From: Ginglymostoma cirratum
Lineage: Eukaryota
Length of the DNA stretch: 64,000 nucleotides
Assembly (NCBI GenBank): GCA_024137785.1
Contig: JAHRHZ010000268.1
Location: 18,285,679 to 18,349,678 of the forward strand
Direction of reading: 5' to 3'
Shown here: positions 1 through 58,010 of the stretch, piece after piece
Numbering within the stretch: the stretch's first letter is position 1
How the letters are laid out: each line of letters begins with the position of its first letter
Made by a program: the position numbers and the translations under genes
The notes under the pieces: model-generated
Database searches by the model: none
Told to the model about the DNA's origin: nothing
Seen by the model: the letters and a program-made list of their open reading frames with translations, nothing else

Positions 1-739
1 GTGCAGACAGTAGTAGTCCTCAAGGAGAGGAAATCCTTTTGGCAAGAATTTACCATTCACCATCTGCTGCACTCCCATACTGCTGACTTAGATCTAGCAT
101 TGACCAATTCCCCTGATTACCTGTAAGAAAACAACAGCTGGCACATCTGACCACAACCTCATTTCTATCTAAGTAGCCTTTTATAGTATCTTGAGAGAAA
201 TAACAAATGCGGGGTTCAGCTATGTAACAGAGATAATTGGAATTGTCTCAACTACTTAGACTGGCATCCTCTCTATCAGGAGGTCAGATTTTGTTTGATT
301 TTAGATCAAAAAATATATTTTTAGACCATTGGAATGTCTCTCTAATCTAAAGATTCATGCCTTGGCTTTGCATCACAAGTTAGTTTGTTTATGAGTTGCT
401 TGTTTTTCTCCTTACTATCTCTTCTCTCCAGATGTCACTGAGGTATAGCCTCATAACAGGCCAGCAATTATCAGCAAGCTACTTAGCCATTGAAACTACC
501 ACACTTGAGCCTAATTCTATTCAAATGACAGCCATATATGCACTATTGTCAGTTGGGAGCAATTCATGCTAAAAGATGGGGAAGTCAAAATGCTTTTAAT
601 ATCAATATGTGACACAAAAACTAACTCTAGTGCTCCCATTGCTGCCACAGCTAGATTTATGAAGACACACTGCAACTTAGCACTGTTCAAAAGCTACTTT
701 GGTTTGTTGGGTGATCAGGCAAACAGAAGGACTGGGAGC

Positions 740-13140: not shown

Positions 13141-14019
13141 TAAAGAGAAACGGTCCAAGTTCCCAACAGTGAAGGGGGTGAATTGCATATTAAAAGAAAT
13201 CAATCGCCTGAAACAAAGAGGGTTTTGGTAGATCATCCCAGCGACTGAAATCGATGTTAACCGGGTGAAAAATCCACCAAACCCACGTGGGGGGAGGTGT
13301 AATCGCCCTTTTAACGCCGATTTTAGCAAGTTTGAAATAGACGCACTGCCTTCCAGCCAAATCGGCACCATGGCAACTTCAAAACAAAATGTCATAACAA
13401 ACTTGAATGGAACTGGCTGCGGAGTTGAGCTTCAGTAAACAAAGCAGGGTGCCGCTGGAAAGAGGCTGCAGAGCAAGTAAAAAGTCAGGACAGAATCCCT
13501 TACCAGTTTCCCCTGCTCCTGGCAGCTCGGTGGCCCAGCGGTCGCTGTGCGTCTCCAGATGCTGCAGTCTCCTCTCCCCGAGGCCTCTGGAACCCAAAGC
13601 TTGCAGTGGTTCAGCGAGTATTCTGCTTTCCGAAGTGTTTCTTGTCTTCATGTTAAACAGCAGTTCCTGTCTCCCCGACGCTCACACAGCGGGTGAAGTG
13701 AGTTTTGCAAACGGAACACTTTATGATATAAAGTCTTACTAGTACGTGGCTGGAGATTAATTTTGAATGTTATGTGCTCTTAGTGAGGTGCATCACCTGA
13801 ACACCTGTTCCCTCCCACAATGAGCTGAGTAGCTGACGAATTCCAGTAACTGTCAAGTGAACAGACAGCTCTTTTCACCTTACAGGTACGGTCAGTGTGC
13901 ACATCCGCGCTAAAATCAATGGGCCTCATGTACACCTTGTTTGTTGAATAGAGTGGAATTTTCTACTTTCCGGGGTGTTTGGCACCGAAAGAGTTGAGGT
14001 TGGAACATCTGGAATTGAG

Positions 14020-16033
14020 CAGTTTATTACTTAATAGTTAATTACTTAATAATTACTAATTTTCAAGATGAAGTATTAAGACCTCACTCCAAAAATGCCA
14101 GATATAGTCTGTGTGAAAGTCTCGTTCACGGCATTTTTTAAACGAAACTTTCCTGTGGCAAATTTAACTGATTTAGTTCTATTCTTCATTCGTAATAATT
14201 ACCCTGAGGTAAGAATTACTTCACCCGAGTTTTTTAATACCAGTATAAAAGTTTATAACTGCAATTTCTTATTAAAATGCGCTAAAATAAATCCAACCAA
14301 TAGGCTGTGTATGAGTGGTAGATTTTCTATTTTCTCTTTGTCTGTCCTTCCCAGATCATTTGCTGTTGTGCATCGATGTGACAATTTAATGATCAGTTTT
14401 TGTTGTTCCATGTACTTATCCTTCAGCATTTTGAACTGCATATTACTTTCGAGAAGTACAACCAACGAGGAATGAAAGTAACGTTCACATTAGTTTAACA
14501 TAAGATTGTAGTACTCTCACTATAGGCTAAGAGAACAGTCTTACAGACTAATCAGTACAAAACCACGGCAACTTTTGATACATATCTGTGTACATGAGTC
14601 ACTGACGAATTTTGCAGCTTGTGACGTTTCCCTGCCTTTTGTACCTAAAAATAGCAATAAAACGAAAATGCCATAACAAAAGTGTAAAGGAGAACAACGT
14701 CAGTTAAAAGGATAAGCCTTCTTATTTAGGCTGCTACAGTGAATTCAAAAATATCTTCGTGTTCTTGAACACAAACAAGCCATGTACAAAATTTAACCAC
14801 GCAACCTCAAATTTGAAAGTCGTGTTCAGGAAGGTATAACAGAAAAACGATGATGGATTCAACATATTTTAATTAAATATATATAAAACCATTTCACTCT
14901 TCCTTGGCACTTGTTGCAATAAATGCAACATCAGATCGATATCAGTTGCTTTTCGTTAATTAATTTCATTCAAATTAATTGCATTGACATTAAACCATAG
15001 AACTGTACAACAGCGAAGGTTTTGTTTCATTTTAGAGTCATTGTTGAACACTTGTACAAATAGTCTGTTCATTTTATTATAAATAATTCTAGAAGGGCGC
15101 AGCATCTACGAACTGCAAAAACATTTTTGTTTTCAAGGTCTACCATGACGGTGGGGAAAGGCGGTATTACTCTGAGCAATATCCCTTCACAATGGGCTCT
15201 TCAAATTCTGATCTTCATTGATTGAATCAAGGTTTCAATGAAACCAACACCTCATAGAAATACATCCCATAAACATCTATGTGAAATAAATTCCCACAAC
15301 AGCACAAGAGAAATATTTATGAATAAACACACTTCTATGAAATAAAAATTAAATACTGACAGTCTATCAGCCGTACACAATTTTAAACAAAATAAACTTT
15401 GTTCGTGTATCAACATTTTTTTTTTACAGAGGGCCGTACCTTATCTTATGGTTTAAAACTACAAGAGTGCAGTACGGTAAGAATGTAGAATACATAATTT
15501 ATATCTTTTTGATCTAAAACAAATGGACATCTAGGTAGAATAGTTATAATTATCCATTACTTATGTTACTGGAAGAAGAAAATAGTACACATGAAAATCT
15601 AAAATGAGAACCGTTGAAACTATTTTTCCTCTCCACACTTGTGAAAGCAATGGTTTGTTCCATCTAACATAAACCAAGTGCAATTCTGACTCAAAGGACA
15701 TAAGCATCATTGAAAATAGTATAAATATACATGCAAGTGTAATTCTTCGTATTTCATTTGATTGTTCACTCTTGACTCTCATAAACGGTTCATAGCAGAT
15801 TAGCGATCCATTTTCCATCTCTGAATAATTATTCCAGTGGTTTATGGGAAGCAAAAGCATACGTAAGGAATTTCCATTATGCTATAGGAGACCAGCCCCC
15901 GGGTGTATCAAGTAAAGTTGTGCTAAAATGGATTTGCAGAAAGCTCACTTCTGAACTTTTCCCAGCTGCGAGTCCTTCCTCCTTCGGAGGCTTTTGTTTC
16001 GAAAGATCTGTGTATTCGGAATCACTGTTCAGA
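14020..16033 (-). other. SHOX2: Probable SHOX2 3' UTR; candidate AATAAA signals at 15073-15078 and 14023-14028 (minus strand)
   Basis: AT-rich, repeat-free sequence downstream of the stop, with TTTATT on the plus strand at those positions. The true 3' end cannot be determined. Confidence 0.45.
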
Positions 16034-16312
16034 TCACAGGCCTAGTGCTGCAGCGTGTTTTTTCGCTTTAAGTCTCAAGTCTGCAATGCTGGAGTTTTTA
16101 CTGGTGGTTTTGGCTGCTGCTGCCGCTGCCACCACCGTGGCGGATTCTGCCAAGGTGGCAAGGGGCAAACCAAAGGGCGGTGGAGGGAACATCATATAGG
16201 GCGCATGTGCAGCCAGGTGCGGGTGGAGGTGGTGGTGCGCATGCGCCACGCTGTCCAACTGCAGCTGCGCCTGGACCTGAAAGGACAAGGGAGTCATGTT
16301 GCAGTGATTCTC
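16034..16312 (-). CDS. SHOX2: SHOX2 terminal coding exon with OAR motif; alternative acceptor at 16276
   Basis: tgttttag|GAG encodes [43 protein letters not shown]...[25 protein letters not shown] at 16036-16034. Spliced CDS is 882 nt (293 aa), or 846 nt (281 aa) with the inner acceptor. Confidence 0.97.
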
Positions 16313-17859
16313 CTAAAACAGAATAAGGAGAGAACATTATTACAAAGATACCCTGTCGTCAAAAAAAAAAGACAGTGGTAGCAAATATTTAACTGATTAA
16401 AAAGCGAGAACGTTTTTGAATGGTGTTGGTGCATTGCTCAATAGAGGAGAAGGAAATGAAAGGGTTTAGCAGAGTTTGTCCAGTGCCTGCTCGCCAATGC
16501 TGCATCCAGCAAGCTGGGGGCACCACTACAAATATTGTACATATATCCAAGACTGTCTGGTTACTGGACTCTTATTTCTTCCAACGCGTGAAACCACAAA
16601 GAATAATACAAGAGTTTTAAACCATTGCTTCTGAGGGACTGAAAAGGACAGTGAAAGTGGTTCATCGAATACGGCATTTCCCCCACAATCGGCGGTTCTA
16701 CCACTTGAACACAGTCATCGAACGGACAATATAGTGGGGTCGCAGACTGTGGAAAACAGATTGCCTTACCAATGTACAGCAGTTAGTCTCCATTGTTTCC
16801 TAGAATGGTGAACACTTTAGCTCCGAAGTGATAAAGATACCAGTCAGCCAAAGCACATTCCTTGCAAAGTAACAAATTGTGTACTCCAGGGCGCGTCACC
16901 ATGCAGACAGCTCTAACCAAAAACGGAGCAGAGTCCACAAAGTATGAAAGTGCCACTTGAAACAACACTTTGCCCTCCCACACCATGACGAAAAAAAAAC
17001 ACGTGGAAGATCGCTGAAGTCAATAAAGTATTTGAAAAGCATTTAGAAATCTCGATTTTAAAAAGGGGTTGGAGAGGAAAGAGAGACAACACCGGAATTT
17101 AGATTTTTGTTGGAGTGTTCCTTACTTTGTTGAGAAAAAAAATGCCTGGCATTTCGACCACTTTAGGGGCATCTCCCCACCCGCATCCCCACGTCCCCTC
17201 CCCTCCCTGCGCGGCCGGTCCATTTCACTTTCTCCCCAACTTGTGCAATGGACAGCTGAGGGAATTAAAATTTGTTGAGTAATCACTTCACAAGACCTTA
17301 AGGGATGAGAGAATAACATTCTTAATTCAACCAGCAAAATATCGAGGGAAGATAACACATTGAACAAAAAAAAAGTTGACAAAGTTTCAAGACATAGTCT
17401 GTCATAATCTGTGACTGTTGAGGAAGATCATTCAAATTGAGATGTAAATCAAATATATTCAGAATCAGCGTTGAACTAATGAACATGAAATCAACATTAG
17501 CCAGGGGAAGTGGATAAGTGGACTATGAGATCTTGAGCCATATGAAGTAGAAATCTCCCAAATCATATAAATGTCGGGCAGGCGTGTTACATCTGGATTT
17601 ACTTCCGATTTGCATCAAGTAAAATGCATGCTGCTTGAAAGCGCACGTGTGTTGACTTACGGCTACACTGCAAAGTCAAGGTAACCTGCAAAAACAGGTG
17701 CAGGTTCAAACGTGTAGAAATCACCTGGTCGAAATCTCCCAGGGTTGCCAGCGTAGGTGAAAACCTGTTAACATTTCTGCCACCTTATTTAATAGAAGGC
17801 TAAAAGTTGTGCATGAAAATAAATAGGTTGATGCCTTTTGGGAGATTAACTATGTTAAT

Positions 17860-18210
17860 ATGGTGATATTGATGCACTGCAGAAATTCGCTAAAGCTCTT
17901 TGGACAGCACATTCCCAACACGTCACCACGTCCATCTCGAAGGACAAGGACAACAAATACGTGGGAACAACCTCTGCAAGTCCCCCTCCAAGCCACTCAC
18001 TACTCTGACTTGGAAACACACATTTCCTTAAGTGTTGCTGGGTGAAAATCCTGGAATTTCCTCACTGAGAGCGTTGTGGGTCTACCTACACCAAATGGAT
18101 TACAGCAGTTCAAGACGACAGCTCACCACCACCGTCTCAACGGCAAACAAGGATTGGGCAATACGTTCTGGCATAGCCAGCGATGTGAACATCCTATGAA
18201 TGAATTTAAA
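17860..18210 (+). mobile_element. L2-like LINE 3' end in SHOX2 intron 4
   Basis: gcagttcaagacgacagctcaccaccacc..tctcaa...agccagcgatg..catcctatgaatgaattt, a tail also present at 37715-37838 and 47590-47665. Confidence 0.7.
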
Positions 18211-18927
18211 ACTCAAATTGTCTATGAAGGATAAAAAGTAACACTGAAGTCGAATGTAAAATATACAGTTAGATGTGTGCAAATGATTAAAATTCCGTTT
18301 CAATTGGTCAAGCATTTGAAAGTCTACACAAAGTGCAATTCTAAAATGTAATGTTGTTCAATTCTAAATCATGGACGAAAATGCATACGCAAAAACAGGT
18401 TGTTCTGCGGTAATGGGAGTCCCTTGAGCAGGATGGTAATCTCATAAATAAGGAATACAGCAGTTGCACGACGATTAGTGGAGTTCAGACATTTAAAAAC
18501 ACCTCGTACTACACTAAGCATGTATCAGTATTAGCAGATTTTACTGATAAAATGGCAGAACACGCCACATAACACGGACATTTAGGCGATAATCAAATAC
18601 AACTCATGGAAAATGGCGACTGAACCGAAAAAAAATCCCCGATCAGATCGGAAAACCTCTTTGGTTTAGCTCCCTCTCAATGGTCACTTAAGACATGTTA
18701 ATTTTGGGGGCGACGTGCAAGGACAGGTATTGATACGATGTATACATTATCAATATCGTGTTAGCGATAATATGAACAGAACTGCTCATAGAATAAGGAA
18801 GATGATACCTTTAAATAATTAGTCAAATTTTATTTCCAAAACAAGTTTCGTTAAAGCAGCTTTAAAAGATCGTGCATCTTCCCCAACGGAGATTGTACGC
18901 AAAAAACTTTGATGGATTTATACTTGC

Positions 18928-19016
18928 CTGTTGAAATGGCATTCTCAAGGCTCCCACATTAACGTATGGTGCCACTCGACAAGCTTCTAACTGACTGGTG
19001 GTACCAATGAGTACAC
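18928..19016 (-). CDS. SHOX2: SHOX2 coding exon 4 (89 nt)
   Basis: ctgcag|GT GTA CTC... encodes (G)[29 protein letters not shown]. The in-frame donor is the non-canonical CAG|GCAAGT. Confidence 0.93.
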
Positions 19017-19431
19017 CTGCAGTAGAAAAAGCAAGTTCAAATGTAAGGAAAAGTTCTCGCGTCACGGTCTGGAGCCACTAATCTTAATTAATTTTTGTGA
19101 CTTCGGATACAACGACATTATACTGATGAGAAACATCATAATTCTGCTCAAAGTCCTGCTACACAGTGTATGCATAATCAACGAATGAGTGAACAAATGA
19201 CTAATGTTTACTATTTTTGTTCCACTATCCAATTCCACTCCCCCACCCCAATCCCTTTCCATATCCCGTCCCTTCGCCCCCAAATCCAGATTAAAGTTTG
19301 ACTCTTCTTTTGTTGGCTTATAACCTTGGTCGAAGACATAGCACGTTTAAATTTTACATCAATGCATTAAACTGCATGTGGATTGCTATTAATAACGTTA
19401 CCTCGCCGGATCTGTAATTTAACAAACATAC

Positions 19432-19489
19432 CTTTATGAAGTTGATTCTCTTGTTTTCGACATTTTGCTCTTCTGTTCTGAAACCATAC
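19432..19489 (-). CDS. SHOX2: SHOX2 coding exon 3 (58 nt), homeodomain recognition helix
   Basis: ccctatag|GTATGGTTTCAGAAC... encodes [19 protein letters not shown](G); donor AAG|GTATGT. Absent from the ORF track, read manually. Confidence 0.97.
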
Positions 19490-21726
19490 CTATAGGGCAA
19501 AAACGAAGAAATTTAGTGGCAATGATTGGCAGTTGCATCTCAGATGTACGAGTTGGACTGTTCAAACTGACAACTATGCGATGCAATATCCCGTCGGACT
19601 TATTAATTATTAATATGATTGACCTCGTTTATTTTAATTATCCGACCCTTGTATGCACGATGCATGGCAGCCTCTTCGGAAAGAAACAACGGTGCAAACG
19701 ACCGAAAACATGCAGAATCGTGTTTTTTGTTGCTTTTTCCTGGTTCATGAGAAATTTGTTTCATGTCCTGTTTCATTTCTAACGTAGGTTGCCATCCCAG
19801 AAGAACTAGATATACTTTGATACCCAATACTACAGCGATAATGGCCCTGACATTTGAGAATGAGCTCCGTCCAATAAGATTCAGCTCATTAGCAGACGAA
19901 AATAAAAGTACTATGTCTGTAAGCAAAATAAAAATGTTGTCCTGATACTAAAGGATATCGATACCTGGTAATTAGCATTATTCAAGGTTAATATATCTAT
20001 CTATATATAATCGAATGTTTATTCCTTGGTTGATTTTTGCAAGGCAATATTATGCTCACAAGGACACAGATTAAACCCCATACAATAAATACCACATTAA
20101 TATGTTAAGCTGCTTTGCAATTCTCAAATGAAAGTCTGGTGTTAAATTATGCATGTACGATTTCGAATCCTTTCTATCTGCAAGTACCATCACATGAAGA
20201 AGTTTTCCAGAATCATACTCTAGCAGAAAAAAATACTTTGATGCGTTTTGGAACTGGGATACCAAATTTACTTTCGATCAAATTGAACTTCATCGTTTTC
20301 CATCTTCAAATCACAATGCACTGTTTTGTTACCAAACAGATTATTTGTTTACTCTACCGTTCAATTAAAAAAAAGTATAATTTAACGTCTATAAAAATAC
20401 TCAATCTTATGAAAACCTTTGATCTATTATATTCCAGTGATTCTTAATACCATATTTTATTGACCCCGACAAAATGGCAAATAAATCATACTGTGGGTAC
20501 TAAAATGACCTTACAAAGCAGTTAAATGTAGCTCTGATTGTCTCTCCAATGATTACTGTATCAACATCCTACCTCCATAAGATGTTTTCAGATTTTCAAC
20601 ACGTACATTTGGGAATAGGTTTTGTTAACATCAGAGAACCAATCAGGATTGCATTTAAAAGCGCACAGACTGTCAGCAAGATATAGTTCACCTTGGCAAT
20701 GTATAAACCATTACTTTACACCAATATGTAGAATTGTTTTCGACAATTGGAATAGGTAACAGAGAAAGTTGTTGAAGACGAATTATTGCAATGCTACAAA
20801 ATATGTAGTTTTCAATGCTGAATGTATAACAAATATTGAAGACAGGAAGACTGTATAGAAACTAATACACATTAATCAATATAGCATTCCATATAACAAA
20901 AAAAAACTCAGTTCAAATATTCGTCACAAATACTGCTTAGGATTTGTATTACTACACGGTGAAGTTTGTCCTCGCCTTTCCGATGCGATAATGCAAAGTC
21001 ATCTATGCTGAGCACAAGTCAAACAGGAATTTGAAGAAAAAAAAATGTAATCTTATTGTGTACAGAGAAACCATAAGGAATACGCAAAGCGATGACAAAA
21101 ATAAGTATCCGACATCCCTCTCTCTCCACCTCCTCTACCCCCTCCCCCCCACCCCCATGGTTCTTGACGCAACAACCTTTTTCTTTTGCAGGTCTGTTTG
21201 ATGGTTTTGAACGCTGGTCGATTTGTTCAGGTCAAGTTGCTGCTAAGTTTACCTCGTTATCGTATTACAAGCTGGAAACCCCCCTAAGAATACTATACAG
21301 CTTGATGCAGATGGTACTGTAACAGAGGGCGCATGCTAGCAATTTCCCAATAGCAGCTGCAGCTGCCGCTGGCCTATCAACCACAACTTCTCCGAAACTT
21401 CCAGTAAATTAATTGTCACTTCTTACGGCACAAACCTATTTAATTCAGCACAGCGGTATACAGTTTCAACATCTGAAGGATTATTTACGTAAACATAAAT
21501 CATTTTATTCGTAGGCTGAACCTGTTGTGTAGATGTTTTAATTTGTTTCCTTTGCACTTATATCTGATTATATACCGAACTGAATTACTTCTAACAGAAG
21601 TGCAACCCACAACGTTAGCTTAAAAATAAATAATAAGATCACCCAGTAAATCAAAACGTTATGCTATTTATTTTTGCTATATTCTAGTGTACCAGATGCT
21701 TGGATCATAGTGTATATTTGCCTTAC

Positions 21727-21935
21727 TTGCACTCTGGCTTCTGAGAGCCCCAGCCTCTGACTCAGCTCTTCTCTCATAAATGCATCCGGATAATGGGTTT
21801 CATCGAACAACCTTTCCAGCTCGTTTAGCTGCTCCAGTGTGAAGTTAGTCCGACTTCGCCGTTGTTTAATTTTTGTCTGCGCTTCTTCTTCCACTGGTTT
21901 GGCGTCTTCTTTTCTGTCTTTAATATCAACGCTTC
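21727..21935 (-). CDS. SHOX2: SHOX2 coding exon 2 (209 nt), most of the paired-like homeodomain
   Basis: Acceptor tatag|GA, then [69 protein letters not shown], then donor CAA|GTAAGG. Confidence 0.97.
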
Positions 21936-22380
21936 CTATAAATGACCATCAAACGCTCTAATTACACAAATGTTTAAGGTCCAGATATCGGCAAGAATGT
22001 CTTGGACCGAGCATATAAAAAGTTACCAGGTAAATGAAATTAAAAACAAGTTGCCTCCATTGTAATTACATTACGACAACGTTAATTTTAAACGTAGACT
22101 AATTTCTGCCTTTTCCAGTGCACTTTTTGCTGAATTATATATAGCTTTTACTATCTCCACATGTCAATGTTTAATCCTCAAAAGAAAGCCCATCATTCAG
22201 TTGTTTTTAAAGTGTTTTGTCCCAGGCGACTTATCATTGTTCAAGTTAATCTTTTGCTTTCATAATTTCCTTCTAGTAGTACACACTAAGCTAATAATAA
22301 ACTTCGATGCTCATGGTGTCGGCCACATTATCCTTAATATAATAGACAGCACTTTTGAGTATTACAGATTTATCGCTGAT

Positions 22381-22472
22381 TGCATTTAGAATATCTAAAT
22401 TTGTTTAAATCAAATAACAAATGTACTGAATCAAGTTATTTCATTTAAACAAATTTAGATATTCTAAATGCA
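22381..22472. repeat. Near-perfect inverted repeat (38-bp arms, 1 mismatch, 16-nt spacer) in SHOX2 intron 1
   Basis: tgcatttagaatatctaaatttgtttaaatcaaataac (22381-22418) versus gttatttcatttaaacaaatttagatattctaaatgca (22435-22472). Confidence 0.95.
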
Positions 22473-24238
22473 TTGTTAGAAATTTACTTTACAGCTACTT
22501 TAGCTTGCTCACTCCCGTAATTTGTCAACAAGAGTCAAAAGCTGCAAATTGCAGTAGTTTGTGAAAAGGACCAATTTTGAACAGCTGAACTGCTATGTTT
22601 ACAAATTATATGTTGCAGAATTTGTTAAGTTAAAGCTAAACAAACATTGCGAGGTTTAGGTTTGATCATGCGTTTTTGTTTTACGAAGTGCATAAACAGT
22701 GCCCCAATCCGCAGCGAGTTCAGGTTCGAATACTTTGGTACAACGCATAGATTAACCAGGTTACATAGTATTCAGAGCCTATTTTGGACGTCGCATTTTC
22801 AACCAGGACACTTTGTATTAGAGCGATCTTTGTTCGGGTTTCTGAGGTGTTCGCATTTTTCAGAGAACTAAAAATACAACGTTCACGTTAAGTCTCCACA
22901 TAAGGTACTGTACAGTGACATAAGCATTAATGCGCTTTGTTGCCTGAAGCTCCAGAAACTTGCTTACCGGTGCCATTATCATGATTATTGTTTGAATGAA
23001 TAGTACCCTTTTTTAAGTGGGCCAGCATCTGTCAACTACAAGTGCACATTAAACAGTGATGAGAAATAAACTGTGCCATACATTACAGATAACGTTAAAG
23101 TGCAAAAACATTACACCTCGCACGGGAAAGCAATCACCATTTTTTGTTGTTGCTTCAAAGTATTCAGAAGTCAGATAAAAGGAGCAAAAAAAAAAGAGCA
23201 AAATTGTTTGAAAACATTGTCTGTAGCTAAAATGTAATGACATTGATTGTATTAAGGAGAGCTTATTCGTTTTATTTAACCACGAGAATCTCATTTATTA
23301 TCGTAAATTAATTTACTGAAGAAAATAACGCAAAATGATTAATGAAGTGGATGTATTTAGGGAGCTTAGTGAGCACTGTATTCACATCGCTGTAGTAGTG
23401 TTCGGCAGTAAGTTTAGCATCCATAAATTGGCAATATTCTGTGATGTGCAATATAGTCTATATAAATACTTTGATGGTAACGATTGTTTAATAAGTCCCC
23501 TTCGAAATGGCGGCCTGTATAAAGTGACAGGATTTGTTTATTATATCATTTCTGGACGATGATTTGGAATTGTATTCCTATTTCAGCAACGGGGTAGGGG
23601 TGGGGGAAACTTAGTTGTACAGCATGGACTCGAAACATAAGAACAAGATCAGTGCCGTCATTGTCATCTACCTATCGGTAAACGTCTATAAAAAAAAACA
23701 ATGCATTGCAACTGGCGTTAAAATGTTTCTTTGCTAAACCACAACCGTGATGTTATTCTCGGTATAACCAAATCAAATCTGTTTAAAACCGATGTTAAGC
23801 AGAATTACACATTCTTTAAAAACAGAAACCAGAAGCCATTAAGTTTTTCGCAATAATTGATATTTGATTGACCTGCATGCGTCACCGAACCTTTCTGTAA
23901 ACACGCTATTCTCTGGGTATTACCGCGGACACATTGCTTATGAAATACAACTTCCACTCTGTTTTATTTAAATCATTGATTGTATCGTAACTAAACACCA
24001 ATCGTATGTAGTTACTATGATTTACTGTACTTGAGTTGCAAAAAGAACCACTGACTTTTAAATGAGTACGTTAACAACGCTCTGTAATTTGCTCTAGATT
24101 TGCTCATATTCTTTGAATTTAAGAACAAGGTCCATATCGTGGAAAATAATAAGTAAGTCCACATATTGACAACGCACCACGCGGGTCATCTAAAGACACT
24201 CTTAACTACCGCGTGTACGAGTATGAGACTTGTTTTAC

Positions 24239-24485
24239 CCGGATCGGTCAGTTTCGGTGTACCGCTGTCCCGCGGTCTTTCTGGCCCGATCTCTGGCTCA
24301 CTGCTCGGGGATCGAGACGCCCCACGCTGTGCGCTGATCATTTCATCCCGGCTGCCTTCACTCAGACTCGGCTCTCGAGCTCGCACAGGCCCGCTCTCCA
24401 GAACTTCCCGATACGTGATCCCATCCTTCTTTTCTTTCACCTTTTGATCAAAAGACTTCGAAACAAAAGCTGTAAGTTCTTCCAT
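24239..24485 (-). CDS. SHOX2: SHOX2 coding exon 1 (247 nt, ends in phase 1)
   Basis: ATG at 24485 gives [33 protein letters not shown]...TPKLTDP, the SHOX2-type N-terminus. Donor G|GTAAAA at 24238 is in the phase needed to join exon 2. Confidence 0.93.
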
Positions 24486-24629
24486 AGCTGTTCAGAGGAA
24501 TATGTCCTTGTCTGTTCTTATTCTCTGCAATACATCAACCGTGCAATGTTTATCTGTTGTACGTCGTCTTGGAGTTGAAATGCAAACCTGATCTTCCAGA
24601 ATTCGGTTGCTCGGAGATGCAGATCTAGT

Positions 24630-24910
24630 ACTGATGTGCTATTGAAGTCAGACTATTTATACTTTGCAATGCTTGCCCAGCTGCGCCCCTTGTACTCAGC
24701 AATTACCTCCCCTTGTAGTCTTGATGTGTCCCCACTCCTGGAACACAGTTATCATCAGCCCCTGGGCTGCAACTCATACCTAGCGGCTGCTATTGGCCAT
24801 TAATCCACCACTGACAAGCATTCGTAATTAATTTAATTAGCGAGTATTACTGCTATTGTTATTACTTAGCTAAACACGGGGGAGCTGGGATGGCACCGGG
24901 GTGGGGCCAA
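24630..24910 (-). promoter_or_regulatory. SHOX2 proximal promoter (TATA, CCAAT, homeodomain sites)
   Basis: Minus-strand TATAAATA at 24661-24654 and CCAAT at 24796-24792. Plus-strand TAATCC at 24801-24806 and TGACA at 24812-24816. Palindromic TAAT-TTA-ATTA at 24829-24839. All lie 170-350 nt upstream of the ATG. Confidence 0.65.
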
Positions 24911-26339
24911 GAGGAATGACACATCGGAGAGCGCGGTGACTGGATCGTCCCTAAAGCCGGCGACATTACAACACCAAAGCACGCTAAAATCAGGTAAACT
25001 TTTGATTTGCTTATGGAAAATCAACATGTTATTTACAGCTTACACAATGGTTAACAACAGATGTTTACACAATACACGCACACTAATAGAACACTTTCAA
25101 AAATGCATATATAAGATTTGATAATCTGTTCATCGTTTTCTCCTGAATCGTGTCAGGTTTACGTTAAATGCTTCGTAGTCATTTTCATCGCTAATTTAAA
25201 TTAAATGAATACTTACATGCTAAATAATACAAATGTGGTCACGTTTCTTTATTGTTGCTGGAAACGGAATTGTACAAAAAAGTAAATGCATCACTTCAGT
25301 CGCTGTTTTCTTGAAGGTATTTTAAATCATCAGTTGGCAGGTATCGCACCTGATAACGTGTGGAAGAAGCGTGTGGAAACGTTTTTTGATGTAGAATTTT
25401 TGCGAAAAGGGTACACATTATACAGACATCCACTGGTCTGTGCAACGTGTGAGGAGATGTTTGGTGTGTTGTATGTAGTGTCTATACTTTCCGCGTACTT
25501 CACTGAAAGTACAAAATTGACCATGCAAAAAGGAAGGTTAAGAGCCAAGCGTTATCTTTGTCCAATACCTTCTCTTTGTGCACAATTTGAAACATTAGAC
25601 ACTTTAGAAGTATTGAAGAATAAGTCGCTGGCTCTAACATTTGTAAAGATAGTTTATGCAGCTTTTATTCCGCATAAATACCGACAATCCCATGCGTAGT
25701 TGATTGAACCTTAAGTAATTTAGCTTTCAGTACCATTGTTTTCAATTACTTCATGACGGTTTGGAGATGAACAATTCGCACTGTTGATCCAACAAGTTAC
25801 CTATTTATGTTGTATCTCAGTTGGATCGATTACCTGCAATTCTGTCACATTCTTCATCAACTTAATATTTGTAAATAACAAACCTCGACCCTTCGTAGAA
25901 AATGCATCGAATTATTGCAAAGATGACACTAGATCCTAGTTGTAAACATAACTGCGCTATATCTCTTCAAATGTATTTTCTGATTGTTTGGGACTGATAT
26001 TTTGTTGAACGTTGCAATAAGGTAGCATTTATTTAAACATATTCCGTGTTACTCATTCTGAAAAGGCCGATAAGTTAATTTTTGCCTGTAATTTTAATTA
26101 ATAAGAAACAAGACCAGAGGGAGCGGGCGATCATCGTCTTAACACTGATGTGGAGATCAAATGTTTTAATGCCCTATGCCTAAAAAAAGTTCACAAATTT
26201 GTTTGACTAAAAAAGAAACGATGCAATTTCTATTCAGTAATGTTTACATAAATCCTGCAATTCTGGATAGTTTGAAAGAAATCAAAGTTTACATCTGGTT
26301 GAACTGTCAACTGACGAACACAATCTTATGGATGAATAG

Positions 26340-26468
26340 AGCAAATAACTGAAGATGATGAAAATCTGAAACAAAAACAGAAATTTCTGGGGAATTCAGC
26401 AAGTCTGACAGCATCTGAAGAGGGAGAAATGGGGTCACGTTTCGGGTCCAGTGACCCTTCTTTAGAAC
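26340..26468 (-). mobile_element. Penelope-derived short repeat with degenerate hammerhead core
   Basis: Minus strand CTAAAGA-A-GGGTC-actg-GACCC-GAAACGTG followed by the family body cagatgctgtcagacttgctga. Confidence 0.7.
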
Positions 26469-27779
26469 GTACTTCATAATTTTATGGATGTTCTGCACTT
26501 CACAGAATAACAGTATTCAGACTGTAACAAACACGTAGCACAATTTATCAGATTTTTTTACGCACTCCGCGGATAACATACAGATACATTACGTTTTAAT
26601 TCGCATCTGTTCTCCTCGGTACGTCACAATTAAATACAAATAGTTGTTAAATTTGTTGAATACGAAAAAGAATGTTAATGGGCACGAAATGAAAGATTGT
26701 GAAAATGCAGAGGTATCACAATAAAAACAACTGTCGTATGCGAGAGCACAACTTCGTTTCGATTGCGATTTTGGTTTAAAATTATGCAAAATAATTGCTT
26801 TTATTGTATGACAAACACTAAAATATACTTTTCATAAATTCCTACGCGTTTTACTGAGGTTATTTACGGCATAAATCGGTTCGTTCTATAACGCTAACTA
26901 ATCTGTTAGTATTTGATAATTTGATAAATAAATTTTATTTTCATACGTCAGTAACTTCTATTTGAACATTATTTTAATCCACGAGTCACAGTTTTATGTG
27001 CGAACTGAAATTGTTTCTTTATTTAGTAGGTGTAAATTGCACTATAAGATTTTTTTATTGTTTCCTTTTATTGTTTTAAGTGCACATAAACACTTGAGGT
27101 TTTATGATGAGTAGTTATTTTAATTAGTTTGGAAGTTGCTGCATAAATACATTAATTTACAATACAAATGATGGACACCATCCGATGAGAAAATTCTCTG
27201 TAACAGTTATAGCTTTCCACTTTTCCAGGACGTTAAATATGTTTCTGATGACGTACCGGAGTGTTAAAAAAAGGTTCAACTTTCCCATCGCCACCTATAT
27301 CACTGAGTATGACCATTTCTGGGTTTTATATTTACAAAATAGTCATTATTAAGTTTTAAAAATGCTAACGCGCATATATCGCACTATTCCACGACTCGTA
27401 AAAGTAAAATTTTGACACCAAGAAATATATTTAACGAAGAAATATCATTGCCCAATTCTACGCGCTAGGGCAAACCCTTGGCCAAGAAAAAAAAATTAAT
27501 TCATGATGTTTGAAACAGCTATTGCACTGCTTCCAGTCACGCGGCTCAGTGAGTGCAAGTACCAGAGTTATGAGTGTAGATTTTCCAAAGCGATTTATTC
27601 CCTTTTGTGTGCTGAATATCTTTTTCAGTTCCACCACAACTTAAAACAAAAACAACGCTGTATGAGTTAATCCTTCTTTCTTTTCAATTTTAATAACTGT
27701 ATAAACATCCCTCATTGCTCTGTAAGCTTAGTAATTTTGCCCATTGAGGGAAACAGAGATGGTTGTAAACTTTACCAAC

Positions 27780-28110
27780 AGCAGCCCACGCTGAACAGAC
27801 TGGAGGTCAGCAATCGATGGCTCGGAGATCAAACTTCCTTCCTTATTCGGGCTGGAGTCGATCGACAGTTGGTTGAACGAGTCTGTTAACAGATGGCGCC
27901 GTCCTCGAGCCGGAGATCGCAGTCTATTCGGTTCCGTTAAAGCCCATCGATCGCGCAGGTATTGACCTTGATTCAATTGATAAGTGACAGAAAGGACAGA
28001 TAGATGTTGGGAACGGTCGGCAGCCGTTTGTCCCGCTGCCCGCACTTTGTATCTATGTCCTTGTGGAATGTGTAGAAACTGAGGCCTAGAGACTACATTT
28101 TCGCCGTGAC
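27780..28110 (+). promoter_or_regulatory. RSRC1: CpG-rich promoter and candidate non-coding exon 1 of RSRC1 (donor after 27958)
   Basis: Local CpG cluster; AGATGGCGCC (YY1/CTCF-like) at 27891-27900; donor CAG|GTATTG at 27958/27959; GACTACA (ZNF143-associated-like) at 28091. The divergent SHOX2-RSRC1 arrangement is known from human. Confidence 0.55.
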
Positions 28111-28145
28111 TGTTTTGCCTTTTTTCCTACCAATATGTTCAGCTC

Positions 28146-28570
28146 GGGGAGGGGGAGAGAGGTTGGGGCAGGAGGAGGAAGGAGGGGGTAGGGGTCGGGG
28201 GGAGGAAGGAGGGGGTAGGGGTCGGGGGGAGGAAGGAGGGGGTAAGGGAGAGGGAGGAGGGGGTAAGGGAGAGGGAGGAAGGGGAGGGAGTGGGGGTGGG
28301 GGGAGGGGGAGATGGAGTGGGGAGGAGAAAGTCGGGTGGGGTATAGAGGATAAGAGGGTGAAGAGAGGGGATGGTGGGAGAGGAAGGGTTGGGGGGAAGG
28401 AGGATGTGCTTGGGTGGGATCAAGGAGTGGGGCTGGGGAATGTGTTTGGGTTGAAGGAGGGCACGGGGAAGAAGGTGGGGAAGTTTGGAGAGGAGGATTG
28501 AATGTTGGGAGGGAGACTGAGAAGGAGGGGGAGGTGTGAAGAGGGGGTGGGCAAATGCATCGGGCAGTGG
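28146..28570 (+). repeat. G-rich polypurine low-complexity tract with 27-nt tandem units
   Basis: ggaggaaggagggggtaggggtcgggg occurs twice plus degenerate copies; many G3+ runs. Confidence 0.9.
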
Positions 28571-28949
28571 GGAGTTCAGTGAGAAGATGACAAATTGTTC
28601 GAACAGAATAAGGCCAATCGTAACCTTAATTAAATTATAGCTTCTTTTCATTAAATTAAAATAATTTGTTTAGGTGTTCTTTACATTTCTTATCCACCTC
28701 TCTTAATCCCATCTTGCTCTTCCTGCCTATTTTGCTTTCTAAACCTGATTAGGTTCAAATAGATAGGCACAAAAAGCACTGATCAATGAACAACAGCAGT
28801 GTGAATTTTTTGACAGCCCACTTCTGGGTCCAAAATTCTCACGCTAACTCAGAAATGACAAATTGGTGATTTAAGTTTTAAAACTTTCCAGTGTGAGATT
28901 TGAATTTAAGACGTCAAGATTACTAGCCATCTATTATATCACTAGTTTT

Positions 28950-29165
28950 GTGGTTAGTTGGCTCGCCGAGCTGGTTTGTATTTTTTCCGCAAACGTTTCA
29001 TTACCCTGCTGGGTAACATCATCAGTGCAGCCTCCGATGAAGCTCCACAACCCGAGCTACAAATTTGTTGTAAAACCTTAGAGACCTATGGGCGAAGCAC
29101 GCTCAAATTGGCACAAAAATGGGAGAATTACTCCATTTGACAGAGCGCGACCCGCTAACAACTCC
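28950..29165 (-). mobile_element. Penelope-like pLTR fragment flanked by a 14-bp direct repeat
   Basis: atatcactagtttt at 28936-28949 and 29166-29179. Shares gctcgccgag and acaacc.gagc with the Penelope element at 49995-50430. Confidence 0.8.
28987..29030 (-). ncRNA. Minimal type I hammerhead ribozyme motif
   Basis: Minus strand ctgca-CUGAUGA-U-GUUACCC-agca-GGGUAAU-GAAAC-GUU-ugcgg has the complete core, stem I, stem II and palindromic stem III. Confidence 0.7.
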
Positions 29166-29654
29166 ATATCACTAGTTTTCTGCAACTGTTAAATAGTGTA
29201 ACTATTTTCTAGTGACTTCAGAGGCTGATGACCGTTTATCAATCCTATCTTCTCTCAGAACTAAAGCTCCTCATTCATGCCACCTTTAGATCAGTAAATC
29301 TTTGCATACACTTAAGTTTTGATATAATCACACAGAAGAGATGATTGCTGTGGGTAAGGAAGTGGCAGATGGGAGATTAACAGCAGTGTAATAAAGGATT
29401 GGGCTGGTGGCAGAGACACATACGTTCACGAGCTCCATCCTTAAGATAAATGGTGATGAATGAGTGGTTCATGGAAGAGGTATAACTAGCCATATCCTTC
29501 CTCTACATCAATTAGGATTTTAGAGGCAGGAAATATTTGGCCAAGAGGAGGAAGGAATGATTGTGCTTGTCCTGATTAAGCCAACTCTTACAGTGAATGA
29601 ATTGGCTAGTCATTTTCTAGGTGCTCTTTGACAAGAAGGCACTAGTTGAGCGAA

Positions 29655-30085
29655 GTGGGGTGGGAAGGGAAGGAGAGAGTGAGAGAAAGTGAAAAGAGTG
29701 GGAATTTGGGGGTAGAGAGGAAGTGGGAATGGGGTGGGGAGGAAGTGAGAGAGGAGAGGGGCCAGTGGGTTGATGGGAGTGGGAAGAAGGGTGGGATTGT
29801 ATTAGAGGGACAGTGGTGGGAAAGGGAGAGAGAGGGGTTAGATGAGAGGAGAGGAATGAGGAGAGAACGGGAGGGGGTGTGTGGGGTGAGAAGGTGAGGA
29901 GAAAGGAGGATTGGGGGATGGTGGGAGTTGGAAGGGGTGATTGGGAGGAGGATGGGTAGAGAGGAGAGGAGGAAGGGGAGAGGGAATGGGAAGGACAGTT
30001 AAGTGGGGTGGAGAGAGGTCTGGATTGTGGGACAGGAGAGGATATGAGAATTGAGTGAGGAGGGGAATCAGAGGTGCAGGTAGGT
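29655..30085 (+). repeat. Second G/A-rich polypurine tract
   Basis: About 430 nt with almost no C on the plus strand. Confidence 0.9.
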
Positions 30086-37000: not shown

Positions 37001-37021
37001 GGACAACTCACTTCAAGTTTT

Positions 37022-37218
37022 AAAAACCATAAGAATTGCGGATGCTGTAAATCAGGAACAAAAACAGAAGTTGTTGGAAATGCTCAACAGGTCTGGCTGC
37101 ATCTGTGAAGAAAAAATCAGAGTTAACGTTTCGGGTCCGGTGACCCTTCAGTTCTGAGGAAGGGTCACCAGACCCAAAATGTTAACTCTGATTTTCCAGC
37201 AACTTCTGTTTTTGTTCA
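37022..37218. mobile_element. Fold-back Penelope-derived repeat with hammerhead remnants and 14-bp TSD
   Basis: agagttaacgtttcgggtccggtgacccttc / gaagggtcaccagacccaaaatgttaactct inverted arms; tcacttcaagtttt at 37008-37021 and 37219-37232. Confidence 0.85.
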
Positions 37219-37839
37219 TCACTTCAAGTTTTCTTTTTTGTATATTCGTAGAAACTTTATTTGTTTTTATGTTTATAGCTAGCTTTGTTTTGTTATTTTT
37301 TCTCCTGATTAATTTTAGAATAATACTTTGCTTTTTTTTAATATTCTGTCCAACTTTTTTGGCCTACCATCAATTTTTGTGTAATTATTACATAATTATA
37401 CAGCGCAGAAGAGGCCTGTTGCCTCATTATGCCTGTACCACCAAATCTATGCTAAATCTACAGGAGTCCCTCTTTTCCGCACTTAGTCCCATAGCCTTGA
37501 ATGTTATGACTTCTTATAAGTTGTGAGGTTACCTGCCTCAACTACCTTCCCAGGCAGTACATTCCACACTTGCCCCGTATCATATGCATCTTTAAAGTTG
37601 ATACAGTCTTGAACTTTTTTAGAGTTCATTGTGGACATTGGGTTCCCCTTCCTGTTTGAATGGTAAAGCTCCCCACTTACCCTTGTACTGGTGCTAGTAT
37701 TGTGGGTTTATCGATAGCACATGGGACTGCAGTGGTTCAAGAATGCAGCTCACCAACCCCTTCTCAAGAACAACTAGAGACAGTTAATAAATGCTAACCA
37801 GCCAGTGATGCCCAGGTCCCATGAGTGAATAAAAAATAT

Positions 37840-44830: not shown

Positions 44831-45228
44831 AAGAAAACGGTTTTGCTCCTTTGCTGGTTTGTTAGATCATCTGTAAACAATAAATCTCAAAAACTAAAAG
44901 CTGGCTTCAGTAAAACTTTAGTACGCAGATGGGGAATAGCCCATGGTAATACTGGTCGGTTCTTGGCAAAGCCGTGGATCAGATCATTGAATCCATTAAT
45001 ATTAGGATACAAGGCAAATTTACATTTTTCAGCAGTGTTGTCGGTTGTTTGATTTAGAATATTGTGGATGATCTCAGCTGCTGTGGTGCAATTTGGCACA
45101 TTTCAAAATGTGAGCTGTGTTTTTGGAGCAAGTTGTAGGATTTAGATTGGCATGAAGCCTCCTCAGTGATATGGTCTTAGATATTAGTGAAAAGAATGAA
45201 CTTTTCAGAACTGTCTAATTGCAATAGT

Positions 45229-45422
45229 TCTGGCAGCATCTGTGAAGGAGAAAATAGAGTTAAAGTTTCGGGTCCAGTGACCCTTCCTCAGAACTCAGTT
45301 CCGGACCCGAAACGTTAACTCTGTTTTCTCCTTCACAGATGCTGCCAGACCTGCTGAGCTTTTCCAGCAACTTTGTTTTTGTTCCTGATTTACTGCATCC
45401 ACAGTTCTTTTGGTTTTTATTT
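45229..45422. mobile_element. Fold-back Penelope-derived repeat with near-intact hammerhead core (minus strand, 45257-45296)
   Basis: Minus strand gagtt-CTGAGGA-A-GGGTC-actg-GACCC-GAAAC-TTT-aactc; long inverted arms; tctaattgca at 45214-45223 and 45423-45432. Confidence 0.85.
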
Positions 45423-47665: not shown

Positions 47666-48483
47666 CATGGCAGAATTTCTTAGATACCTGATTGGTTCAT
47701 CTGTTTTGGTGGTGTTATTTGAGAGGTTATTGTTGAACAAGATATTATGAAATGCTTTCTTGTTTAAATGGCCTTGTTTTATTCACTCATAGCACCCCTT
47801 AGTACAGCAGTCAGTGCACTGAAGTGTCAGCATAGATTATGACCTTAATTCTTACAGAAAGAACCCATGATTTCCTGACTGAGAAGTGAGACAGATTAAA
47901 TGGGAATTTTACATCTGTTTTGGTGTTAGGAATGACGGAACATCAGCATTGCTATATTATTGGACCGAAGATTTGTAAACTGTGTAAAACTTACCTTTTC
48001 TTTAAATAGTTCGTAGGTTTTATGAAATCTCTTCCTTGTCAATGTTTTGCATTGTTCCGTAAATGAAAGTAACAGAAAGTCTACATAACAGAATAATGAA
48101 AAATTAATTTGGTAATTAATTTATTGGTATGTTTATCTTTTTAATTTTTAAGAACGCAAGGATAATTTTTTCACAAAGCTTTCCCCCTTTGAATGCATGA
48201 TTAATGACGTCAGATAATGATTCTTCATTGCAAAATGTGGTAAATAGGTCATTAAACACAAAGCAATACTGAAGAAGGAGGGATGTTTGACGTAAGGGCA
48301 GACTCATGACATGGTCTTCATAGTATTTGTTGAGCACTCCCCATTTTGCCACATCCCTGCTGTATTACTACATGGACAAGTTACATTTCTGCAAAACCTT
48401 GCAAGGTGCTTCATAAAACTGAAAACTGTGGCCAACCAGCATTCTGGAGGCGCATGTAGAAATGAGAGAAGAAATTATTGCAG

Positions 48484-48675
48484 TTAGAGCTCAAAAGGCC
48501 TGGCAGCATCTGTGAAGGGAAATCAGAGGTACCTTTTCTGGCCTGGTGACTTTTTCTCCGGACCCAAAACATTAACTCTGATTTCTGTTCACAGATGTTG
48601 CCAGATCTGTTGAGCTTTTCTAGCAACTTTTGTTTTTGTTTCTGATTTACAGCGTTTGCTGTTCTTTTGACTTTT
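48484..48675. mobile_element. Fold-back Penelope-derived repeat with 12-bp TSD
   Basis: ctggcagcatctgtgaa / ttcacagatgttgccag inverted arms; aaattattgcag at 48472-48483 and 48676-48687. Confidence 0.8.
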
Positions 48676-49994: not shown

Positions 49995-50430
49995 CTGAAG
50001 TTATGGATTTGCTCGCCGAGTCGGTGTGTTTGATTGCAGATGTTTTGTCACCCCGCTAGGCAATATCGTTAGTGTGCTGCTGGTGAAGTGTTGGTGTTCT
50101 GTCCCGTTTGTTATTTACATGCCTTGGTTTGCTGGCGTGGTTGACAGCACTTCCGGTTCTGTTTTACAGTGGTTTGTATATTGAGTCCAGTTCAATGTGT
50201 TTGTTGATAGTGTTCTGGTTGGAAGGCCAGGCCTCCAAGAATTGCCTAGCATGTTTCTGTTTGGCTGATGCTCTTATGGATGTGTTGCCCCAGTCGAATT
50301 TGTGTCCTTCTTTTTCTGTGTGTATTGAGACCAGTGAGAATTGATCATGTCTCTTGGTGGCTGGTTGGTGTTTGTCTGCAATCAAACACACTGGCTTAGC
50401 AAGCAAGTCTACTACCTTATCCACAACCTG
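49995..50430 (-). mobile_element. Penelope-like element 3' fragment (GIY-YIG endonuclease end plus pLTR, with inverted partial pLTR)
   Basis: HQPATKRHDQFSLVSIHTEKEGHKFDWGNTSIRASAKQKHARQFLEAW..NTINKHIELDSIYKPL; inverted repeat ~50007-50040 versus ~50375-50409; agca(a/t)ttcac at 49985-49994 and 50431-50440. Confidence 0.85.
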
Positions 50431-51204
50431 AGCATTTCACGTATTGACTTCTCTCTAGTTTACATAACATGCTTCCCAGTGTGATCTTTGTGTTCCTACA
50501 ATTGCCTGGTTGGTGTTTTTTGTGTCATCTTTAATAACTATGTTGTGTTTTTGAACGGTGGTAACCAGAACTTTACTCAGTGCGGAAGAAATGAAAATGA
50601 TGGAATTTCTTTGCTTTTTTGACTTACCAATGGCCTTATAACACCTCTCAACATCTGATTTACTTTGCTAACTGTTATGAATATTGTTGCAATGGTTTTT
50701 TTTTGTCAGGACCTTGTGAATACTTTAGTCTCCTGACAGGTTATTTTCTTAGTTTAGTTTATCGCAGTACATTAATTTGTAATGACAGACTTGTGCATTA
50801 AATTAAAATACATGCTTTACTTTTTTGCTATGTATATTACCTCAAGATGGGAACCATAATATGTAGTTGAAAGATAGCTGTGCAAATGAATAAAATAATA
50901 GTAATAGCATGCAGTACTCACATTTTAGTGAAATGGATCACATTTTGGTATGACTTTGTTTTCATTAGTTGTACAAAAGTTGCTGAAAATTACTCCTGTG
51001 AAATGTCCAAAACAGATCAGTAGTTGGCATGTGGCCGTACACTTAATATTATGATTTGGGCTTTTTCACAATGTGTCTAAAGTATTCCCAACATAAAATT
51101 AATTTGTATAAACAAACTCTTAGATGAACTGAAACCTTATAACTTTCAACCTGATGTGAATTCATAATAGTTTACTGCAACGCCAACAAGTTATTTGTTT
51201 ACCT

Positions 51205-56632: not shown

Positions 56633-56814
56633 ATGGGCCGCCACTCCTCAGATAGTGAAGATAATACCAGAAGTCGTCGTAAAAAGAAACACCGGAGGAA
56701 ATCAACTTCCAGTAGTTCTTCTGATAGCAGAACATTCACCCGGAAAAAATCTAGTAGAAGGACAAGATCACACTCTCGTGGTCATCGCTCCCATTCCCGA
56801 TCCAAGGACAGAAG
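56633..56814 (+). CDS. RSRC1: RSRC1 (arginine/serine-rich coiled-coil 1) first coding exon
   Basis: [39 protein letters not shown]... resembles human RSRC1 [23 protein letters not shown]. Upstream acceptor tttcttaag/cag at 56610/56613; donor AAG|GTGGGC, phase 2; synteny with SHOX2. Confidence 0.92.
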
Positions 56815-58010
56815 GTGGGCATTATCAGTTACGTCTTGTAACGTTAAGAAAGAAGAGTCATGAAGTTATGAAGAAGAGTCATACTTGATTTGAAATGTTA
56901 ACTTTGATTTTGTTTCCACAGATGCTGCCAGACCTGCTGAGTTTCTCCAGCATTCTGTGTTTGGACCTGTTGTAAGATGCTATTTACAAAATCAGCCAAT
57001 ATACCAGAGAAACAGCCATGTCAAAGATTAACTGATAGGGAATTAACAGGTTGCGCTATAAGATCCGGATTGAATAAGGGATTTCTCAAAAGCATTGTTT
57101 CTGTCTTGTTTTCTTTATGTTCTGGATTTACACTTTTGAGTGAAAGATTTTATCTGTTGTCGTCCCTGTTTTTTCCAAGCAATTTTCGGTTTCCCCTCCT
57201 AACACATCTTGTTTTGACAAATTTCATTCTTTTCATATGTCACTACCAAATATTGTTCTGTTTTTCTTGTTTTGTCTTTTAAGGCAAAAGACAGATCAAA
57301 TATTTGGAAACAGTTGTTATTGTCAGATACAGAGCGAGCAGCCAGAATTCTTATGACCAGTTGGGCAGCTAGTTATTGTGAAGTTTGGATCTGAAGTGAT
57401 TTTATTCCAATTTAGATAGAATAGAAATCACTGATTGTAGGATGAATCTAGTTTAATTCACATAGGAGCACTGAAAATTCAGGCAAGTTAGAAACTTTGG
57501 AATTTGTTTTGTTACTTTGCTTTCCTTAGAGCACTGTTGTAAGAAATTGAGAATGGTATATCTGCCACACTGTTGAAACTTATTTTACATTTCCATCTCC
57601 CAGAGATAACTTTGTTTCTTTGGTTGACTTTGGAAAACTGTTTGTAAAGGTGAATTCCAGTTTTTGGTGAGTGTGAATTTGAGAAAGTCAGGCAGATACA
57701 ATAACTGAGAAGATGTTTTGTCAAGTGAGGTGAACAAAGTGGTATTTCTACGTATTCATTTGTTTATCTATTGAAATTAGTGCTAGTTCACTATAACCAA
57801 TATATTTTAGTTCAAACAGTAAAAAAAAAGGGTTAGAAACCACAATTTCTTCTGAAATTGAAAACGATAGTTGTGAGATCCCTAGTAGTTCAGCAAGTTC
57901 AGAGTATCATTTTGAAATCAAATTCAGTAAAGTGTGTATTCTTGGACAAAAGAATGTATCTGCTGATATGAGAAAGTTTATGAAGTCATTGGATGATTGT
58001 TATGTCCGAG

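Follow-up and report, generated by a model that had tools for sequence, protein, structure and literature searches.

The hammerhead motif found in the window, as we call the whole 64-kb stretch of DNA analysed here, is very probably an inactive and neutrally decaying leftover of a Penelope-like element (PLE), carried by a 216-bp, two-armed insert that lies antisense in the likely intron 1 of RSRC1. A minimal type I hammerhead can be read directly from the minus strand, from 29030 to 28987, with all the parts given for it in a preliminary description of this DNA; the same description reported a 216-bp insertion with a flanking 14-bp direct repeat, and the sequence confirms both, with the insertion at 28950-29165 between the two repeat copies. 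The features referred to below are as follows:

24238..24802, minus strand: SHOX2 first exon, to the extent seen in a likely-RNA contig from one organism B run; ATG at 24485
27875..27958, plus strand: first non-coding exon of a plus-strand gene, probably RSRC1, from likely-RNA contigs
28936..28949, no strand: left copy of the 14-bp target-site duplication, from the sequence
28950..29043, minus strand: arm 1, the 3' part of a PLE pLTR, -52 to +42 relative to the cut
28987..29030, minus strand: minimal hammerhead of type I, with the cut predicted between 28992 and 28991
29044..29165, plus strand: arm 2, from the same element but inverted, about +42 to +164
29166..29179, no strand: right copy of the 14-bp target-site duplication, from the sequence
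50012..50440, minus strand: second two-armed PLE fragment, in the same intron, older and more decayed, with a broken core
56633..56815, plus strand: first coding exon of the plus-strand gene, with an RS-rich reading frame

On the minus strand, the core CUGAUGA (29025-29019) is followed by an extra U (29018) and by a stem II of 7 bp (29017-29011 with 29006-29000), with an AGCA loop and a G10.1-U11.1 closing pair; then come GAAA (28999-28996), the loop-less palindrome ACGU and the triplet GUU, which places the predicted cleavage position between 28992 and 28991. Stem I has 5 bp, one of them a G-U pair. The motif has the traits of the minimal hammerheads (min-HHRs) of PLEs: a core of CUGANGA and GAAA with an NUH triplet, which GUU fits, a helix II of 7-8 bp with an extra 5' nucleotide, a helix I of 4-5 bp, and palindromic positions 15.2-16.2 (here ACGU) without loop III. 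It departs from them at the G10.1-C11.1 pair, highly conserved though not invariant, which is G-U here and across its subfamily. A descriptor built on the motif had a single match in the 64-kb window and none on either strand of 300 Markov-resampled windows; the motif is not there by chance. It stands alone, and the tandem array of hammerhead units expected of a non-LTR retrozyme is absent from the site.

The hammerhead model search proposed in the preliminary description, carried out as an Rfam scan of the motif region, returned nothing at E≤5, which is no evidence against the motif because it is a minimal one. When folded as an isolated 44-mer (z = -2.56), stems I and II formed and the core was mispaired. 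Within 216 or 451 nt of context, stem II had a probability of at least 0.90 and stem I of at most 0.01, so that stem I is predicted to remain unformed because of a competing upstream hairpin.

The motif belongs to an endonuclease-bearing PLE, because the family includes a pLTR-ORF-pLTR unit, shows RVT_1 and GIY-YIG matches, and places its AUG as does PAc, the Poseidon PLE of Anolis carolinensis (PMC11167929). A complete unit is present at locus L122, with a pLTR containing the hammerhead, a broken ORF of 2.5 kb and a second pLTR, so that the motif occurs at both ends; its reading frame begins inside stem II, and the start AUG of the element frame is made of A9, the extra U and G10.1 (window position 29019). 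Six family pieces, from broken copies, were compared with Pfam: one of them (L126) matched RVT_1 with E=1.4e-5, below the curated cut-off, and the other five had no match at a meaningful level. None of the six matched GIY-YIG directly in Pfam; the C-terminal piece resembles GIY-YIG clusters (Atlas 0.96, with PF01541 on 12-27% of members) and contains a visible IYKIP..C..C..YIG motif. The copies also have the structure of EN+ PLEs, with direct or inverted pLTRs, a tail at one end and a short target duplication. The layout of L122, together with the reverse transcriptase and GIY-YIG matches, bears out the earlier reading of the motif as the minimal hammerhead of a PLE pLTR. Elsewhere, at L125:4980-6131, a stop-free frame of 384 aa lies beside a PLE fragment.

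In the 4.36 Gb of genome searched, the insert retrieved 812 first-look candidates, 40 of which were scored for similarity. The 34-nt hammerhead core has 632 exact matches genome-wide and the 41-nt version of the window occurs at 16 loci, including the window copy, while neighbouring family words had 2735, 1102 and 1220 matches. The motif is of a known kind, and it is an ordinary example, being among more than 600 copies that are nearly identical. Type I min-HHRs were described in the pLTRs of metazoan PLEs by Cervera and De la Peña 2014 (PMC4209133); sharks are not named among the hosts in the main-text portion of that article, whose supplements may list shark or G-U variants, and the literature passages retrieved held no shark data on Penelope hammerhead ribozymes.

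The anatomy of the insert gives an indication of how it arose. Arm 1 lacks the pLTR TATA-like box, its start being immediately downstream of the place of this box, and includes the ORF-start AUG at 29019; arm 2 comprises the tail and the start of the RT-EN frame, now with stop codons. The 30 sampled copies all extend upstream of -52, and in most of them an A/T-rich TATA-like box, probably with a promoter role, precedes that position by about 30 nt; a fixed family 5' end at -52, as in the window copy, was rejected (0/30). Likewise, none of 128 pieces, a small and partly core-selected sample, started at the cut site (position 0), the nearest starting at -4 and +4.

A survey of 90 loci (L031-L120), not chosen for likeness to the window copy, yielded 39 independent two-armed insertions. 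An arm end at +36..55 is paired with one at +72..95 in 32 of them, none has two short or two long arm ends, and seven are outside these classes, so that all 32 classifiable insertions combine one short and one long arm end. A target duplication of 8-17 bp accompanies 28 of the 39, and the two-armed form with a short target duplication is the usual form of the family. The one-short-one-long rule suggests that the internal priming site is not the same for the two target strands. Additionally, the longer-reaching arm ends where the short arm begins in the window copy, in L043, and in L002, L006 and L019, the last three having been chosen for likeness to the window copy.

We infer that these consecutive arms arose when both strands of the target primed synthesis on the same uncut RNA. 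The element nuclease would nick the two strands of the target 14 bp apart; the first end would prime reverse transcription at an internal start (about +42), copying through the uncut ribozyme to -52, and the second would prime further 3' (about +164) and stop where the first copy began, after which the two cDNAs would be joined head to head. This agrees with PAc, which extends both strands of its target, has its tail set by two internal RT initiation sites within an AC-rich stretch, and uses uncut, unprocessed RNA as the insertion template (PMC11167929). The ORF of PAc and that of the window family both open at the beginning of stem II, and AUG and cut are 26 nt apart in the former and 28 nt in the latter; however, the likeness is one of layout, and PAc is an active element tested in vitro and the window copy a promoterless stub of 216 bp (PMC11167929). 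PLE insertions with inverted pLTRs and a tail at one end only have been described (PMC8557442, PMC3846280), and the passages concerned show the same inverted 5'-truncated arm, one-sided tail of 30-40 bp and short target duplication; unlike them, arm 2 of the window insert reaches about +164 in the ORF and the arms are consecutive instead of overlapping.

Alternatively, the two arms might adjoin because of a later deletion and not because they were originally joined there. An organism A contig speaks for this, since it has 1640 other letters before 29057; the contig contains arm 2 and the right flank, and these letters might be a later insertion or a longer ancestral arm.

The insert lies between two genes. 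The minus-strand gene encodes a homeodomain and an OAR motif, in exons further left of 24238, and its N-terminus at 24485 is, we assume, of the SHOX type. On the plus strand, contigs covering 27875-27959 occur in three of four organism B runs, from three studies, with no differences from the window, and they all exit at a CAG/GT donor (27959); two of the three runs are guessed to be RNA and one is of unrecorded kind, and the contigs carry no strand. The RS-rich exon at 56633-56815, which had no match in Pfam, presumably belongs to RSRC1, judging by its N-terminus and by synteny, and the exon at 27875-27958 would belong to the same gene. In mouse, Rsrc1 is the immediate upstream neighbour of Shox2 (PMC11467299). 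The match of the first-exon contigs runs on for one base beyond the donor site (G, 27959), and the exon at 56633 has likely acceptors with C or T as the exon start; there may be a further non-coding exon between 27959 and 56633. The insert is about 1 kb into the first intron, antisense to the plus-strand pre-mRNA, and 4.2 kb from the furthest 5' point of SHOX2 RNA (24802). The preliminary description was right in placing the hammerhead on the SHOX2-sense strand and at roughly 1 kb from the RSRC1 promoter, although the site is downstream, within intron 1, with the motif about 1.1 kb from the likely start of RSRC1. Long purine-rich, G-skewed plus-strand tracts flank the insertion just downstream of the first exon (28146-28560 and 29640-30000), and are possibly G-quadruplex or R-loop sequences.

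Whether the motif is as intact as the preliminary description had it depends on the comparison with other copies. We picked 60 loci by words outside the core and, after removal of five duplicates and six interrupted motifs, scored 49. The core and an NUH triplet are kept in 34 of these copies and the palindrome too in 16, and 13 additionally keep most of both stems (a looser test); full pairing as in the window copy occurs in three, all with GUC. The triplet GUU occurs in 4 of the 41 closest copies, and in four among the first 100 of the matches listed, and in the window copy it departs from the GUC of the family by a derived cleavage nucleotide. In the passages available of PMC9217987, GUC and AUC are the best triplets, GUU can work, and the most active construct was cut after GUU. 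The word intact is therefore correct in that all parts are present, but the triplet is a minority state and the G-U pair an inherited subfamily trait.

With regard to this pair, the stem II closing position reads TG in 90, CG in six, CA in one and other combinations in three among the first 100 of 610 matches listed. Decay in place of a G-C pair at a CpG was rejected as its origin, because it would be expected to produce similar numbers of TG and CA; in a sister subfamily, most copies retain G10.1-C11.1. Judging from the copies compared, G10.1-U11.1 is an inherited subfamily trait, which sets the subfamily apart from the min-HHRs with highly conserved G10.1-C11.1 in PMC4209133; our literature search found none on hammerheads with G10.1 and U11.1. 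The change (29017/29000) adds a further in-frame AUG, six codons downstream of the first one, and the subfamily that carries it has spread to at least 600 exact-core copies genome-wide.

Several observations go against considering the window copy as dead. It is among the better-kept copies, given that only 3/49 are as fully paired and 13/49 pass the looser test; its GUU satisfies the NUH rule; its hammerhead arm has kept five out of five CpGs; and it has persisted across at least three organisms. The preliminary description had offered youth, protection by low methylation and co-option as reasons for its preservation. A recent insertion would explain a total divergence from the sample majority of only 5/94, among the lowest seven of 55 copies plus itself. 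However, this low total is all due to CpG retention: non-CpG differences in arm 1 are 4/79, exactly the median of 31 subfamily copies, and arm 2, with 9/99 against a median of 6 in 14 copies, has diverged more than usual. Moreover, the insertion is shared at the same site with two related organisms, whose flanks differ by about 5-8% from the window. In organism A, contigs from two studies span the left junction (28562-28985 and 28718-28985) and a contig from one study spans the right, while in an organism C contig arm 2 is joined to the right flank across a diverged gap of 123 bases; these contigs, although strandless, place the insert in other samples. Organism D had no contig at this locus, which carries no weight either way. 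The orthologous-site comparison suggested earlier thereby covered the junctions of the insertion, with the relatives' contigs across the left one stopping at 28985, before the core. Shared junctions and a median non-CpG divergence imply an age that is ordinary for the subfamily and, at most, mild protection of CpGs, and we consider youth very improbable. As for such protection, a neutral copy might look intact for being at the edge of an unmethylated SHOX2-RSRC1 CpG domain, which is compatible with a decaying leftover and may explain only its intact appearance. CpG o/e stays high between about 13.5 and 28.5 kb, up to a point just left of the insert, and the five CpGs kept in arm 1 exceed the median of 3, with all kept in just one of the 31 subfamily copies; yet CpG o/e is already 0.44-0.49 at the insert and 0.15 by 29.5 kb, arm 2 keeps 5/10 CpGs, which is the median for 14 copies, there is CA at a sixth, variable site (28978), and the window copy was picked for its intact look. 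We find this protection conceivable, although somewhat doubtful. The domain itself, at 13500-28500, is a 15-kb A/T-rich stretch, undepleted in CpG (o/e 0.5-1.9), which runs across SHOX2 and ends at the plus-strand first exon.

Co-option by the host would require an antisense RNA from RSRC1 intron 1, running toward SHOX2, to be cut between 28992 and 28991, with the other half of the dimer supplied in trans by transcripts from other copies. The intact core, palindrome and stems, the SHOX2-sense orientation, the retention of the insert in related organisms and the abundance of family sequence in likely-RNA runs would all fit such a role. Nevertheless, divergent transcripts from 27875 run leftward and cannot include the hammerhead site, the insert brought no promoter because it is without the pLTR TATA-like box, and no dimer partner exists at the site. 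Only one transcript has been shown to start nearby, and the motif is antisense to it; an apparent antisense spliced RNA at 28091 proved to be a coincidence of 18 nt with a locus on a different contig, and was rejected. The changed cleavage nucleotide, a non-CpG divergence typical of dead copies and the predicted lack of stem I point in the same direction, as does a core common to 632 loci. Assuming 20,000 promoters, chance alone would place about 29 of the 632 exact-core copies at no more than 5 kb from a promoter. Domesticated hammerheads such as those of Clec2 and RECK are conserved motifs at single loci; they lie on the transcribed strand and have tertiary contacts and a full helix III. They reside in the Clec2 3' UTR and in a RECK intron, as told in passages of PMC6155905, and the window motif is like them in being inside a host gene, but is a minimal motif of a repeat family and is on the strand opposite to that of the host exon and donor. 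The proposal of co-option, consequently, went unsupported, and we deem it extremely improbable.

A leftover of this kind is expected to do little even as RNA. Its ribozyme strand would today have no promoter in the insert and be opposite to the host pre-mRNA strand and, if transcribed, the lone window copy would likely cleave poorly, because its stem III needs a second molecule, cleavage depended on the element protein in the only PLE tested with it, stem I is not predicted to form in context, and the copy has both G10.1-U11.1 and GUU. Dimer cleavage of minimal hammerheads has reportedly been studied by Lünse et al. In the part of the literature considered, a single min-HHR did not cleave and dimers did so little (PMC4209133), and PAc was cleaved only with its protein (PMC11167929).

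The second PLE fragment, near 50 kb, is likewise antisense to the plus-strand gene. The related copy mentioned in the preliminary description, at about 50035-50075, does exist, but its decay is only partly of the CpG type, because the 50012-50235 portion differs from the subfamily of the window copy at 27 of 78 non-CpG positions; its use as a matched control was rejected, as it is from a different and older subfamily. The inverted arm of this older copy (50373-50440) begins about 3 nt before the predicted cut and includes GUC, which is near, and not at, the cut. The window also contains a short repeat family with internal inverted arms of 37-50 nt, hairpin-like, at 37019-37224, 45219-45419, 48478-48678 and 26343-26475, and the copy near 26400 has many contigs in likely-RNA runs.

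If co-opted, the window motif would be a minimal hammerhead of a PLE put to use by the host on a developmental gene, a case of which no example is known to us. As found, it matters little by itself, as one stub among hundreds in the genome. The arm-end rule, which held for 32/32 classifiable insertions, is modestly useful in that it quantifies an already known qualitative feature of these elements. Likewise modestly useful, the wide spread of the G10.1-U11.1 subfamily agrees with the in vitro result that insertion does not need cleavage.
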